This document shows positions 2,819 to 45,751 of a stretch of DNA of 64,000 nucleotides, piece after piece. This DNA comes from Candidatus Berkelbacteria bacterium (GTDB lineage Bacteria; Patescibacteriota; UBA1384; DTJR01), in assembly GCA_026397175.1 (NCBI GenBank), contig JAPLVK010000021.1, positions 56,989-120,988 of the forward strand, read 5' to 3'. Both the position numbers and the translations under genes were made by a program. The notes under the pieces were generated by a model. The model made no database searches, was not told the origin of the DNA, and saw only the letters and a list, made by a program, of their open reading frames with translations. Position 1 is the first letter of the stretch; each line of letters starts with the position of its first letter.

Positions 2819-3472
2819 ATGTTATATATGATGGCTTCGCCAATCGGCAATCTTGATGATCTCACTCTAAGGCAAAGTAACATTTTGTCTTGTGTTGATT
2901 TTGTGTTGGCGGAGGACACCAGAAATTCTAAAAAAATTCTAGACAAACTAAATATCAAAAAAGAACTGATTTCATTTCACGAACATTCAAACGAATCAAA
3001 ACTTTTAACTATTATAGAGATGTTAAAGGCCGGCAAATCAGCAGCGTATTTGAGTGATGCGGGAACTCCCAATATTTCAGACCCTGGGGGAAAACTGGTG
3101 GAGTTTGCTTTAAAAAACGATATTGCAGTTTCTCCAATCCCCGGACCGAGTTCTTTAACTACTCTAATTTCCGTTGCACCCTTTGCTTGTTCAAATTTTG
3201 TATTTTTAGGTTATTTTCCAAAGAAAAAAGGCAGAGAAAAAATTATTGAAAAAATCAAAAATTACGACATGCCGGTTTTCTTTTTTGAATCCCCTTATCG
3301 GATTAAAAAAACCCTCAATCATCTTAAAGAACGCCTCGAGGGCTATCATATCCTAATCGGCCGCGAATTGACTAAAAAGTTTGAAGAAATTATATTTTGC
3401 GATTTAAATAATCCTGGCCTGCAAAACATCACTGAAAAAGGCGAATTTGTGTTTGCTTTAGTCAAGATATAA
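2819..3472 (+). CDS. rsmI: 16S rRNA (cytidine1402-2'-O)-methyltransferase RsmI (tetrapyrrole-methylase family)
   Basis: MASPIGNLDDLTLRQ…LAEDTR…SDAGTPNISDPG motifs. The start is probably the ATG at 2819; the ORF-track start at 2735 lies upstream. Confidence 0.8.
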   Translation: MLYMMASPIGNLDDLTLRQSNILSCVDFVLAEDTRNSKKILDKLNIKKELISFHEHSNESKLLTIIEMLKAGKSAAYLSDAGTPNISDPGGKLVEFALKNDIAVSPIPGPSSLTTLISVAPFACSNFVFLGYFPKKKGREKIIEKIKNYDMPVFFFESPYRIKKTLNHLKERLEGYHILIGRELTKKFEEIIFCDLNNPGLQNITEKGEFVFALVKI

Positions 3473-3495
3473 TCAATCGCTCCCATATTTGTCTT

Positions 3496-3533: not shown

Positions 3534-3608
3534 CATCCTTGCACTTGATTTTTTAAATATGTATAATAAAGAAAGTTAACGAACTAATTTATTTTTTGTA
3601 GGAGGATT

Positions 3609-4871
3609 ATGGGTAAGGTGAAAATTCACAAAGGGTTTATCGGTGCAATTACAGCGGTGGCAGTAATTGCTGTTTTGGCCGGTACGGCTATTCGGCTTCA
3701 GTCAATTTCTGCGGATACCACAACCCCTGACGCTACCGGCAATGGTCTTAAGGGCGAATATTTTAAAACCGTGAGCCCGACCGGAACGCCGGAATTTACA
3801 TGCCTGGTTAAGAAATTAGAATTCAACTGGATAGCGACCCAGCCGACATCAGCTCACGATGGCTGCACGCCTCAAACCGGAGCAGTTGGCATTGATAATT
3901 TCTCTGTTAAATACACGGGACAAGTCCAGCCACAATATAGCGACACCTATACATTTTACGCGCTTACAGATGACGGAGTAAAGGTTTGGGTAAATAGTCA
4001 ATTGATAATTAACACATGGACAAATCAAACCAGTTCCGTCGAGTCAAAAGGTACAATTGCTCTACAGGCGGGTAAAAAATATCCGATAAAAATCGAATAT
4101 TATAATGGTGTCGGAAATGCACAGATGCAACTTTTATGGTCAAACTCCCATTCGCTCACAGCGTTCACTTCTCATCAAGTAAAACAAACTATTCCGCAAA
4201 GTCGGCTTTATACTGACTGGACTCCGCCGTCTGCATCAGCCACTGCTTCGCCGTCTACGACAGTCATGACCGAAACATTTAAAGGTGGGACGCAGGGTGT
4301 AAGCAAATACACGGCGCTTTACTTGCCGGCTGATACCACCGCGATTGCTACAAAACAACTTCAAGATGCCGGTCTCACGGTTTGGGCATTCAACAGAAGG
4401 TATGTTGAGGACTGGAATACTGATATTGTCGGCCTTAATCATGGTGTTGGCTACTATGTCGGGAATCCGTCCGGTGTAGATAAGACAGTTACGGTTAATC
4501 AACAAGTGGCTGAAAGTGCATCCAATATTTATATGCGAAAAGGTTGGAATTTACTGGCCAATAGCTCGACGAAAGCCGTGTCGCTTGCCGACTTGAAGTA
4601 TTATCTTAACCCGACCTGTACCCAAACAACCAATGCAAGCGGAAAAATTGTCAACTCCAATTGCACCGTTGGGGCCTCAACAACCCCGATCAGTGATTTA
4701 TTTCAGGGTACTGATGTAAATGCATATCTGGCCTACACGACAATTTACGAGATAAAAAATCCCGAAGCACAAACCGCAAGTGAGGCCTTTGACCAAGTGA
4801 CTGTTACGGCCAGCAACGCCAGTACTCTGACTATTCCCGCTCAAACGATGTTTTGGTTATATATCTGGTAA
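3609..4871 (+). CDS. N-terminally membrane-anchored surface protein with a PA14 domain and a shared C-terminal 'GYYV-GWNLL-FWxY' domain
   Basis: N-terminal TM helix (GAITAVAVIAVLAGTAI). PA14-like block GLKGEYF…FSVKYTGQ…DDGVKVWVN…YPIKIEYYN. The C-terminus (GYYVGNPSG, GWNLLANSS, FWLYIW) is shared with ORFs 4912, 6180, 8141 and 38306. Confidence 0.7.
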   Translation: MGKVKIHKGFIGAITAVAVIAVLAGTAIRLQSISADTTTPDATGNGLKGEYFKTVSPTGTPEFTCLVKKLEFNWIATQPTSAHDGCTPQTGAVGIDNFSVKYTGQVQPQYSDTYTFYALTDDGVKVWVNSQLIINTWTNQTSSVESKGTIALQAGKKYPIKIEYYNGVGNAQMQLLWSNSHSLTAFTSHQVKQTIPQSRLYTDWTPPSASATASPSTTVMTETFKGGTQGVSKYTALYLPADTTAIATKQLQDAGLTVWAFNRRYVEDWNTDIVGLNHGVGYYVGNPSGVDKTVTVNQQVAESASNIYMRKGWNLLANSSTKAVSLADLKYYLNPTCTQTTNASGKIVNSNCTVGASTTPISDLFQGTDVNAYLAYTTIYEIKNPEAQTASEAFDQVTVTASNASTLTIPAQTMFWLYIW

Positions 4872-43087: not shown

Positions 43088-43186
43088 TCTTGAAGCCCCA
43101 GTGGTTATCTTTTTCTTGTCATTGCGAAGAGCTCCGCCAGCCGGCGGAGCGATGTGGCAATCTAAGATGGTCAGCGGGGCTTCAAG
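43088..43186. promoter_or_regulatory. 12-bp inverted repeat (TCTTGAAGCCCC…GGGGCTTCAAGA) enclosing an inner hairpin, at the 5' boundary of the GC-rich DGR target
   Basis: Arms at 43088-43099 and 43175-43186. Inner CTCCGCC-AGCC-GGCGGAG hairpin at about 43131-43148. Confidence 0.45.
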
Positions 43187-43246
43187 AATCCTGAACCCAC
43201 CACCTTGAAAGAAGGAGTGGGCAGGCAATAAAAGGAGGTGCTGACC

Positions 43247-43880
43247 GTGGGTGACACCACGCTCGGCGAAGCGCTCCGGCAGATAGCTGGACCGCTGAAA
43301 GATCTGCACGAGAAGCTGTCTGGTGAGGAAGGGCTTGTGTGGCTGGAGAAGCTGAAGAAGTTTCTTCGCAAGGAGAACCCCTGGGCCGAGGTGCAGAAGG
43401 TGGTTGTGGCTTTGCTCAAGTTCGTCAAGACGGTCGAGCTGCCGGCGGTCGGGGCATTCAAGCCCGAAGATCACTTCAAGGTCACTCCCGAGCGGGAACG
43501 CAAGACCGCCAAGGTGGTCATCGGCTATGTCAGCGATAATGTCAAGGCGCTCATCAAGGGCAGGTTGGAGCCGGAAGAGGCACAGGCCACTATCCGTATT
43601 CACGAACTCTGCCAGGCGTCCGTAGACGACCCGATTCTGGCCGAGCTAGGTGAGAATGTCAAGACGGGGCTCAATCGGATGTTCCAGATAATAGAGGAGC
43701 AAGGCCGTGGCCAAGAGGGCGACCTTCTGGTTGACGGCCGTGCCAACATCTTCTACATCGAGGGTACCGATTGGGCGGTCCTCTGCGACTGGCGCGCCGG
43801 CCCGCGGCTGGAACCTCTACGCCAGTCCGGTCTCTTCTCCGCGCAGTTGGAGCGCTGTCTACCGGGTCTTCTCCCGCTGA
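43247..43880 (+). CDS. DGR target (variable) protein, GC-rich; C-terminal VR. Reading frame disrupted or ambiguous by a 1-nt indel inside the VR
   Basis: GTG at 43247 sits 8 nt after AAAGGAGG. It is in frame with the AAC codons of the TR up to about 43804. After a 1-nt insertion relative to the TR, the TR-equivalent frame reads GWNLYASPVSSPRSWSAVYRVFSR and stops at 43878-43880. The ORF-track frame instead reads through to 43996. Confidence 0.6.
43771..43877 (+). repeat. DGR variable repeat (VR)
   Basis: Aligns to TR 44245-44353 with about 20 mismatches, every one at a TR adenine (A to C/T/G), no non-A substitutions, and a single 1-nt insertion near 43805. A GGGGC-TTTGT-GCCCC hairpin lies 20 nt downstream (43896-43910). 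Confidence 0.85.
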
Positions 43881-44244
43881 TTCTCTGGTATTTTGGGGCT
43901 TTGTGCCCCCTGTATCCGAGCCCCCCTTGTCCCTGTGACCCTTTGAAATCCCGCCTTTGGCGGGAAAGTAGAAGGGTCACTTTTCTGTTAAAATAAAAAT
44001 GAAGTTTGTGAAAGGCAACGGCTAGCCTTCGACCTTGCTCGGGCCAGGCGGCTTTTGCCCACAACTTTAGATTTTTGTTACAGAGAGTTGCTTTGGGTAC
44101 GCCTTGAGCGAGAATGGTTGCAAAAATCTCAAAAAATGAAGAGAATCGGTGCTTCCCATCAAGAGATTTTAGATCTCAATTAATATTCAGCGGAGCGATG
44201 TTGTATTTTGCCCGCAGTGATTATGAACGGCGGGTGGCACAAAC

Positions 44245-44353
44245 TTGGGCGGTCAACTGCAACTGGAACGCCGACAACGGCTGGAACCTCAACGCCAATC
44301 CGATCTCTAATCCGAACAGTTGGAACGCTGACAACCAGGTCTTCTCCCACGAC
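44245..44353 (+). repeat. DGR template repeat (TR), adenine-rich AAC-codon template
   Basis: aac tgc aac tgg aac gcc gac aac ggc tgg aac ctc aac gcc aat ccg … AAC-rich. Matches the VR except at adenines. Confidence 0.85.
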
Positions 44354-44749
44354 TCACTTCTTTTCTTCCGCTTCGGCGGAAGTTTTTGAAATGATTTTCT
44401 TTCTCCAACCACCAGTCATTCTCCCGATATTTTCTATTTCTTTGCCGATCTGGACAAATTGATTATTTGGAATAAGCTTTAGTTCCCAACAGTATTGAAT
44501 AAAAAAACGCAAAGAATCAATATATGACAAAGCGTCTTCGAGCAAGTGCACTTTTTTATTCAGAGGCGAGAATGAAGTTTTTTGAGCAATATCTAAAAGA
44601 TCAATAAAAAGAGAATCAATTTTGTGTCCCAAACCAAAGCGTTCACACTTTGGCATATTGCGCTGAATTTGAATCCAGCTTTTATAAGCATTTTTGATAT
44701 GTTCAATGATAGGTAAAGTGGGGTTATCGTGAAAAGAATTATTAGTCAT
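44354..44749 (-). CDS. avd: Four-helix-bundle protein of the Avd / 23S-rRNA-IVS family (DGR accessory variability determinant-like)
   Basis: KCERFGLGHKIDSLFIDLLDIAQKTSF…YCWELKLIPNNQFVQIGKEIENIGRMTGGW matches the IVS/Avd family pattern. It abuts the TR and diverges from the RT, with a 21-nt overlap of 5' ends. Confidence 0.65.
   Translation of the reverse strand: MTNNSFHDNPTLPIIEHIKNAYKSWIQIQRNMPKCERFGLGHKIDSLFIDLLDIAQKTSFSPLNKKVHLLEDALSYIDSLRFFIQYCWELKLIPNNQFVQIGKEIENIGRMTGGWRKKIISKTSAEAEEKK
44365..44392 (+). terminator. Hairpin plus T-run immediately 3' of TR (CTTCCGC-TTCG-GCGGAAG-TTTTT)
   Basis: Seen in the + strand sequence. Only the + strand has the T-tract. It lies inside the 3' end of the oppositely oriented avd-like ORF. 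Confidence 0.5.
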
Positions 44750-45751
44750 AAATTTGAAGAAATAATCTCAATTAATAATTTGTTTTTAGCATGGCAGGAA
44801 TTTGCTGAAAATAAAAGGAAACGAGCTGATGTACGGGCGTTTTCGCATAATTTGATGGGTAATGTTCTTGCTCTCCATCAGGATCTTAGCAATTTTAGAT
44901 ATCATCATGCAGATTACGAGGAATTTTATATTACCGATCCGAAGCCAAGAGTTATTCACAAAGCAACAGTGCGGGATCGTCTGCTGCATCGTGCGATTTA
45001 TCGGGTTCTCTATCCACTATTTAATTCAACATTTGTCTTTGATAGTTATTCCTGCCGGAAGGAAAAAGGAACGCACAAAGCGTTTAAACGGCTGGTTAAA
45101 ATTGCGAGACAGCAAAGTAAAAATTACTCTGGTTCTTGTTGGGCGTTAAAGTGCGATGTAAAAAAGTTTTTTCATAGCATTGACCATCAGGTTTTGGTTA
45201 ATCTCTTGTCGCAAAGAACTTCCGATGAGCGGCTAATTAATTTACTCAAAGAAATTATTGAAAGTTTTGCGGTTTGCGGGCGGAACGCAAACCTAAACAA
45301 TAAAAAAGGAATACCCCTCGGAAATTTGACTTCACAATTATTTGCCAATATTTACATGGACCCGCTTGATAAATTTGTCAAACACAAACTTAAAGCCAAA
45401 TATTATCTGCGATACGCTGACGATTTTATGATCTTAGCCAAAAATTCTGAAGTTTTACGAGATTATTTACAAGAAATTGATCATTTCTTAACCAATCATC
45501 TTAAACTTTCGCTTCATCCCGACAAAATCACTTTTCGCAAACTGAACTGGGGCTTGGATTTTGTCGGCTATGTTACATATCCAAAATTCAATTTGCCGAG
45601 ACCGAAAACTGTCGAAAGAATGTTTAGAAATCTTGAAGAAATAAAGAGAAATAGACCCGAGAAATTAAATAAAAGTTTGCAGTCATATCTTGGTTATCTT
45701 GAACATGTAGATGCCAAAGCAATTTCTGATTATTTGAAATTGCTTTATTAA
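44729..45751 (+). CDS. DGR reverse transcriptase (RT domains only, 340 aa)
   Basis: N-terminal NLFLAWQEFAENKRKR…YEEFYITDPKPRVIHKATVRDRLLHRAIY. RT motif C is RYADDFMIL. No maturase or endonuclease domain. GTG start. Confidence 0.85.
   Translation: MKRIISHKFEEIISINNLFLAWQEFAENKRKRADVRAFSHNLMGNVLALHQDLSNFRYHHADYEEFYITDPKPRVIHKATVRDRLLHRAIYRVLYPLFNSTFVFDSYSCRKEKGTHKAFKRLVKIARQQSKNYSGSCWALKCDVKKFFHSIDHQVLVNLLSQRTSDERLINLLKEIIESFAVCGRNANLNNKKGIPLGNLTSQLFANIYMDPLDKFVKHKLKAKYYLRYADDFMILAKNSEVLRDYLQEIDHFLTNHLKLSLHPDKITFRKLNWGLDFVGYVTYPKFNLPRPKTVERMFRNLEEIKRNRPEKLNKSLQSYLGYLEHVDAKAISDYLKLLY

Follow-up and report, generated by a model that had tools for sequence, protein, structure and literature searches.

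A diversity-generating retroelement (DGR) whose variable protein gene carries one extra base was identified in DNA from a Candidatus Berkelbacteria metagenome-assembled genome (MAG; GCA_026397175.1). The window, that is, the whole 64,000-nucleotide stretch that was analyzed (contig JAPLVK010000021.1, positions 56,989 to 120,988, forward strand), holds a full DGR of the candidate phyla radiation (CPR) type, comprising a target gene for the variable protein, a variable repeat (VR), a template repeat (TR), a bAvd gene on the minus strand and a reverse transcriptase (RT) gene. The extra base lies within the VR and cuts the last 24 VR codons and the native stop off from the rest of the target gene. 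With somewhat better than even confidence, the best explanation is that the DGR variable protein is encoded by a genuine +1 frameshift allele, which came about through slippage of the RT.

Extra base and reading frames of the variable repeat

The TR (106 nt) and the VR (107 nt) could be aligned over their full lengths with just one single-base gap. The alignment contained 20 substitutions, all of them at TR adenines (9 to G, 6 to C and 5 to T), with 8 of the 28 TR adenines unchanged and no mismatch at any other base. The chance of all 20 mismatches falling on adenines is P ~0.264^20, or ~3e-12. On this sequence pattern, the VR was evidently written from the TR by adenine-specific mutagenesis. 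An earlier note on this DNA, made from the letters alone, had described an extra G near 43805. There is exactly one extra base, but its position and identity are ambiguous, as the base can be placed at any of six positions, 43799 to 43804 (G, G, C, C, C or G), with equal parsimony, and a C is as possible as a G. All six placements face the TR motif GACAAC, whose three adenines are all substituted in the VR. Across 43795 to 43810, the VR in its 16-nt version reads GCCGGCCCGCGGCTGG.

Up to the indel, the target open reading frame (ORF) is in the AAC-codon frame of the TR (...TDWAVLCDWRAGP). On the 3′ side of the indel, translation in the AAC frame gives GWNLYASPVSSPRSWSAVYRVFSR and then the stop TGA at 43878 to 43880, and the called ORF (43238/43247 to 43996) goes on in a different frame to the TAA at 43994 to 43996. 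The frame is thus kept in the 5′ 28 to 33 nt of the VR and lost in the 3′ ~75 nt. The earlier note had given the same account of the frames, with the upstream ORF ending in ...WRAGP, a downstream stop at 43878 to 43880 and a called ORF in another frame to 43996, and direct reading of the frames agreed with it on all three points.

The AAC/AAT codon frame of the TR is unbroken, and it is the target ORF that shows the discontinuity; the VR therefore underwent an insertion, and a TR deletion was ruled out. An aberrant TR length was likewise ruled out, as the loop concerned varies in frame across the family, with 4, 5 or 6 residues between two Trp. In the protein alignment, this loop is longer by one codon in the relatives (NSGNDYW versus NADNG-W). 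No compensating second indel was present, the sole other gap being located 3′ of the native stop and common to many family members.

Reality of the allele and identity of the native frame

The earlier note had offered, as one of two explanations, that the consensus of a hypervariable VR was mis-assembled. Exact look-ups of the 249-amino-acid (aa) frameshift product, of Avd and of the upstream L31 protein led to Logan contigs from 13 sequencing runs. Contigs from 10 of these runs (ERR15302166, -169, -191, -196, -213, -214, -223 and -224, SRR20698639 and SRR20698651) extended across 43799 to 43804, the longest covering over 6.2 kb, and all were 100% identical to the window. Each run had been assembled separately and with an assembler different from that used for the window. 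The same sequence was recovered from separately assembled runs, which excludes a one-off error in the consensus; mis-assembly was rejected, and the additional base is real. It is therefore scarcely credible that the base stems from an error of sequencing or assembly in a GC-rich, hypervariable VR and that the real gene is in frame. Assemblers can be confused by VR heterogeneity, and one sibling contig (L188, from SRR20698639) does stop within the VR at 43841, but a chimeric path via substitution variants would leave the length unchanged, and the exact match of the 10 runs is at odds with such an artefact.

The population is clonal at the DGR locus, and this clonality is inferred to be the reason that one allele was seen. 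No second VR allele was detected at the consensus level in the contigs of the 10 runs, and the protein collection searched contained no near-identical protein in which the VR differed. Scans of metagenomes and of GTDB species representatives for in-frame sibling alleles gave only relatives that were at most 72% identical, and the exact look-ups of Avd and of the neighboring L31 protein gave identical DNA only. The earlier note had also expected the indel to be informative about DGR activity, which proved to be so in a weak sense: the adenine-only pattern attests to homing in the past, but at the consensus level there was neither a second VR allele nor a sign of ongoing diversification.

A separate feature of the sibling contigs was their pattern of ends upstream of the TR. 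Four of them end exactly at 44188 and four others begin at 44159 or 44162, and the resulting 27- to 30-nt overlap at 44159 to 44188 is that expected of a branching node in a k=31 assembly graph. Apparently, some other sequence in those samples has the 30-mer of 44159 to 44188. This 30-mer lies upstream of the TR, at a distance of 57 nt, and the stretch containing it is conserved also in a relative with the same type of locus (GCA_043824275.1, referred to below as L001).

The native frame was examined with a protein search in which the repaired 213-aa target protein was the query. There were matches to the window's own product (249 aa) and to 12 full-length relatives (207 to 226 aa, 42 to 76% identical), besides three partial or weaker ones. 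All 12 full-length homologs have the TR-frame C-terminus, W..A.PV..P..W.AG.QV.SR followed directly by the stop (...QVxSR), and W185, W191, W204 and V210 are invariant among them; the out-of-frame tail was found in none of the 12. No conserved full-length protein in the frame of 43238 to 43996, which the earlier note had named, together with reads unanimous for the extra base, as counting against its interpretation, was detected among the homologs. At least 420 relatives were detected in metagenome contigs and at least 122 in GTDB species representatives, and the family is almost purely Patescibacterial. From 175 loci fetched, 69 unique TR/VR pairs with adenine-biased differences were obtained. 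A gap inside the mutagenized part of the VR was observed in 1 of these 69 pairs, that of the window's lineage; in the other 68, the AAC-frame ORF is clean and has an ...SR-type end, located where the homology stops or just beyond. The other explanation of the earlier note, that the current allele is frameshifted through a homing error or as a pseudogene, was supported by the TR-frame ends of the homologs and by the 68 in-frame pairs.

The target family had no Pfam match and no detectable similarity to C-type lectin (CLec) or immunoglobulin domains. Two 238-aa metagenomic proteins (P0015 and P0016) have in common with the family only their N-terminal ~45 residues (…LGEALRQ..GPLKDL.EKLSGE.G..WLEALKKFLRKENP) and then diverge, which suggests a separable N-terminal module.

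The deposited product, MCX6809885.1, is a 249-aa hypothetical protein of the Candidatus Berkelbacteria MAG with its start at 43247. The GTG at 43247 is located 8 nt after a Shine-Dalgarno sequence, AGGAGG (43233 to 43238), and the ORF caller starts at a GTG at 43238, which itself overlaps the Shine-Dalgarno sequence. The GTG at 43247 is the likelier start, and the native length of ~210 aa then fits that of the homologs. In the corrected gene model, the native protein has ~210 aa and is encoded by 43247 to 43880 minus one base. An AlphaFold (AF2) model of the repaired protein (mean predicted local distance difference test [pLDDT], 75.8; 13 sequences) placed the last strands at residues 179 to 186, 190 to 197 and 209 to 212. 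According to this model, the shift, which occurs after ~residue 189, would remove the last two predicted beta-strands; from the alignment, it would also remove the invariant W191, W204 and V210 and add 63 unrelated residues. Conservation and this moderate-confidence model together indicate that the shifted allele is most probably a non-functional (null) allele.

The region downstream of the native stop is strongly structured. RNA folding of 43876 to 44000 gave a minimum free energy of -47.1 kcal/mol (z, -5.5), with two hairpins. The second of these (43935 to 43980), which a simple terminator scan missed because its loop exceeds 8 nt, is followed by TTTTCTGTT and looks like the intrinsic terminator of the target gene. 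The shifted ORF passes both hairpins and reaches its stop only past the U-tract. As a terminator-like hairpin and a U-tract precede this stop, the frameshifted allele may give a non-stop mRNA, if the second hairpin terminates transcription.

Origin of the insertion and possible use of the shift

The insertion was most likely a +1 slip, made either by the RT in the last retrohoming or by replication soon after. In the RT route, which we favor as the origin of the allele, the enzyme would have lost register while copying GACAAC, the three adenines of which were miscopied; in one of the parsimonious placements, the C of GAC would have been duplicated. The faulty cDNA would then have entered the VR in the latest round of homing. 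Because the TR, Avd and RT are intact, the frame could be restored by a further round of homing in which the VR is overwritten.

Two features of the repeat are consistent with this route. The insertion is situated exactly where the three adenines were miscopied, and the 75 nt that lost their frame contain no non-adenine difference from the TR. As no other mutation is present in these 75 nt, the insertion is recent; TR/VR differences restricted to adenines have been used likewise to date recently inactivated DGRs (Schillinger et al. 2012, PMC3521204). Furthermore, indels of this type have been described. In the survey of Wu et al. (2018, PMC5758913), 25 of 372 DGRs had a TR/VR length difference, which was frameshifting in 11, and 74% of the TR/VR indels adjoin AAC and were ascribed to template slippage by the RT. 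A possible molecular basis is provided by the proposal that bRT transiently re-uses the preceding template C at AC and ACC contexts (Unlu et al. 2026, PMC12875486). Re-use of a C at an AC context would give an insertion if register were not restored, and duplication of the C of GAC is the placement that would fit this model.

A number of points weigh against RT slippage as the origin. The sequence cannot tell RT slippage from a replication slip after homing. Indels were reported to be negligible in reconstituted BPP-1 systems (bioRxiv 10.64898/2026.07.21.739853), and another paper on reconstituted DGRs mentions deletions at abasic template sites only. A position next to AAC supports slippage weakly, as 34% of the TR positions belong to or adjoin an AAC and only 3 of the 6 equivalent placements touch one. 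Each placement lengthens or adjoins a short run of G or C (GG, CCC). Two further points concern the allele as a whole: the 10 runs belong to two accession series and are clonal, so that they are independent measurements and not independent evolutionary events, and the loss of function was inferred from conservation and from a model with a pLDDT of 75.8 built from 13 sequences.

Several of these points fit a real frameshift that arose after homing, a possible account to which we give less weight than to slippage of the RT. Replication would have slipped in a GG or CCC run that the A-to-G/C mutagenesis had itself made, and the null allele would have become fixed by drift or hitch-hiking. Whichever placement is chosen, the extra base duplicates or adjoins a neighboring G or C, the near absence of indels from reconstituted DGRs speaks for an event outside homing, and the population is clonal over more than 6 kb, so that selection is not needed for fixation. 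These runs, however, have just 2 to 3 bases and are poor substrates for slippage, and the insertion coincides with three miscopied adenines. The VR is otherwise without mutation, so that little time was available for a later event, and the survey of Wu et al. links such indels to AAC sites.

A very different proposal is that the shift is used: the 63-residue tail would be a functional alternative C-terminus, a ribosomal +1 shift would restore the native end, or the DGR would act as an off/on toggle. We regard this as very unlikely. The shifted allele dominates all samples, the intact TR makes reversion by homing possible in principle, and Wu et al. (2018, PMC5758913) suggest that non-canonical mutagenesis adds diversity. 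The tail, however, has no homolog, costs invariant residues and passes through two strong hairpins, and only 1 of the 69 family members is shifted. Programmed +1 frameshifting and transcriptional slippage were rejected by direct reading, as GCC GGC CCG CGG CTG has no recognizable +1 slippery site, stop codon or long homopolymer. Little credence is likewise given to a related speculation in which the DGR would be a reversible switch as well as a diversifier. In that scheme, slippage at AAC would write a silent variable protein, the silent allele might sweep the population (for example, if the displayed protein were a liability), and later homing from the intact TR would re-activate the gene with a new sequence.

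The DGR cassette and comparison with known systems

The features of the locus are listed in Table 1. The cassette has the order target-VR, TR, inverted avd and RT, and the TR is located 368 nt 3′ of the VR. No further copy of the TR, and no second VR for it, was detected elsewhere in the window.

Table 1. Coordinates of the DGR and associated features within the window
Feature	Position	Strand	Basis
Target (variable protein) gene, native-frame part	43247..43798	+	ORF reading; NCBI start; homologs 207-226 aa, 42-76% identical
VR, 107 nt, 3′ end of target gene	43771..43877	+	TR alignment: 20 A-to-N substitutions, 0 other, 1 extra base
GGCCCG interval with the single extra base	43799..43804	+	Faces TR GACAA|C; same in contigs of 10 runs
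Remainder of VR in TR (AAC) frame: GWNLYASPVSSPRSWSAVYRVFSR, then native TGA 43878-43880	43805..43880	+	Homolog-type C-terminus
Out-of-frame tail, 63 codons, RLEPLRQSG...RVTFLLK, TAA 43994-43996	43805..43996	+	ORF reading; in no homolog
Hairpin directly 3′ of native stop	43883..43920	+	RNA fold
Long GC-rich hairpin (43935-43980), then TTTTCTGTT; terminator-like	43935..43989	+	RNA fold
TR, 106 nt, 9 AAC, 28 A, one unbroken AAC/AAT codon frame	44245..44350	+	TR/VR alignment
Hairpin CTTCCG-CTTC-GGCGGAAG and T-run just 3′ of TR	44365..44382	+	Terminator scan
bAvd-like accessory gene, 131 aa	44354..44749	- (opposite TR, RT)	Pfam PF22296
DGR reverse transcriptase, 340 aa from GTG 44729	44729..45751	+	RVT_1; apparently intact

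The Avd product matched PF22296 (bAvd) with an E value of 6.9e-10 and a score of 39.8 bits, 0.2 under the curated cut-off of 40, and the precomputed annotation of an identical protein also gives bAvd. The RT matched RVT_1 (E value, 1e-27) and contains the motifs GIPLGNLTSQ and YADD; the SQ dipeptide of the former characterizes the DGR clade of RTs (Schillinger et al. 2012, PMC3521204). The same cassette order was observed in L001, a 76%-identical relative, and in the cassette comparison its proteins have aa identities to those of the window of 81% for the target, 70% for the RT (over 320 aa) and 67% for Avd. By every sequence criterion tested, the locus is a DGR, save for current diversification, which was unseen at the consensus level.

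The TR/VR homology terminates at ...TCTCCC(A/G)C, after which the VR continues with TGATTCTC and the TR with GACTCAC. At this 3′ boundary, CGC TGA TTCTC in the VR (43875 to 43885) is opposed to C(A/G)C-GAC TCAC in the TR (44348 to 44358), the TR being without the T of the target's stop codon, and this one-base offset is common to many family members. The hairpin at 43883 to 43920 occupies the position where other DGRs have an inverted repeat 3′ of the VR, and it may have a role in homing. On the TR side, the conserved flank GACTCACTTCTTTTCTTCCG runs into the hairpin at 44365 to 44382 and its T-run. This hairpin sits within the 3′ end of the minus-strand avd ORF, 9 nt from the avd stop codon, and its stem is also present in L001.

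The non-VR part of the target gene and the TR form an island of ~58% GC (window positions 43100 to 44350), compared with 35 to 37% in the flanks and in avd/RT. This split is family-wide: over 40 loci, among them L001 (5000 to 6115), the medians were 54% for the target and ~54% for the TR versus 41 to 42% for the upstream flank and avd/RT. It persists although the target, Avd and RT all appear to be co-inherited with L001. Some relatives have two tandem target genes with adenine-only differences from a single TR, examples being L029 (VRs at 3554 to 3657 and 4294 to 4414; TR at 4715 to 4834) and L113 (VRs at 2426 to 2536 and 3364 to 3494).

This class of defect was already described in the 2018 survey (Wu et al., PMC5758913), of which the present allele is an ordinary case, and the known mechanism of DGRs is unchanged by it. 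What is new is the check across independent assemblies, the within-family frequency of 1 in 69 TR/VR pairs, which is a rough estimate, and the corrected gene model. The case is of use mainly in annotation and quality control, as the deposited 249-aa MCX6809885.1 is a frameshift product. The approach also indicates that reads are not needed to check a DGR-linked frameshift, as exact look-ups of the product and of its neighbors in independently assembled runs can serve instead. The locus adds one more natural CPR example in which the knockout of a variable protein is at an AAC-adjacent site and the rest of the element is intact.

The closest likeness is to the frameshifting indels of Wu et al. 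(2018, NAR 46:11, PMC5758913), with which the allele shares a TR/VR length difference that is not a multiple of 3 and lies next to AAC in the TR, here a VR +1 change opposite GAC-AAC. It differs in that the indel was verified in 10 independent assemblies and is the sole case among 69 pairs of its own family. Where Wu et al. read such indels as possible extra diversification, conservation in the present family points to a damaged allele. The gene order, the inverted avd and the Patescibacterial host resemble those of CPR-type cassettes (B3 of Wu et al. 2018 and the CPR/DPANN DGRs of Paul et al. 2017). The order in the window is probably that of B3, an architecture that makes up 90% of the CPR collection in Wu et al. 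(2018, PMC5758913). The target family, in contrast, has no Pfam match and may correspond to one of the "unknown VR" groups.

The BPP-1 DGR (Mtd/TR/Avd/bRT) is similar in its adenine-specific TR-to-VR transfer, its Avd partner, the SQ and YxDD motifs of its RT, the C-terminal location of the VR in the target and the hairpin after the VR. In the window, avd is inverted and the target is small (~210 aa) and of no assigned fold, whereas the BPP-1 target is a phage tail-fiber CLec protein. The inactivated DGRs of Schillinger et al. (2012, PMC3521204) resemble the present locus in having a disabling point event and adenine-only TR/VR differences that mark it as recent; in those elements the break is in the RT gene, whereas in the present locus it is in the VR and leaves the RT, Avd and TR intact.
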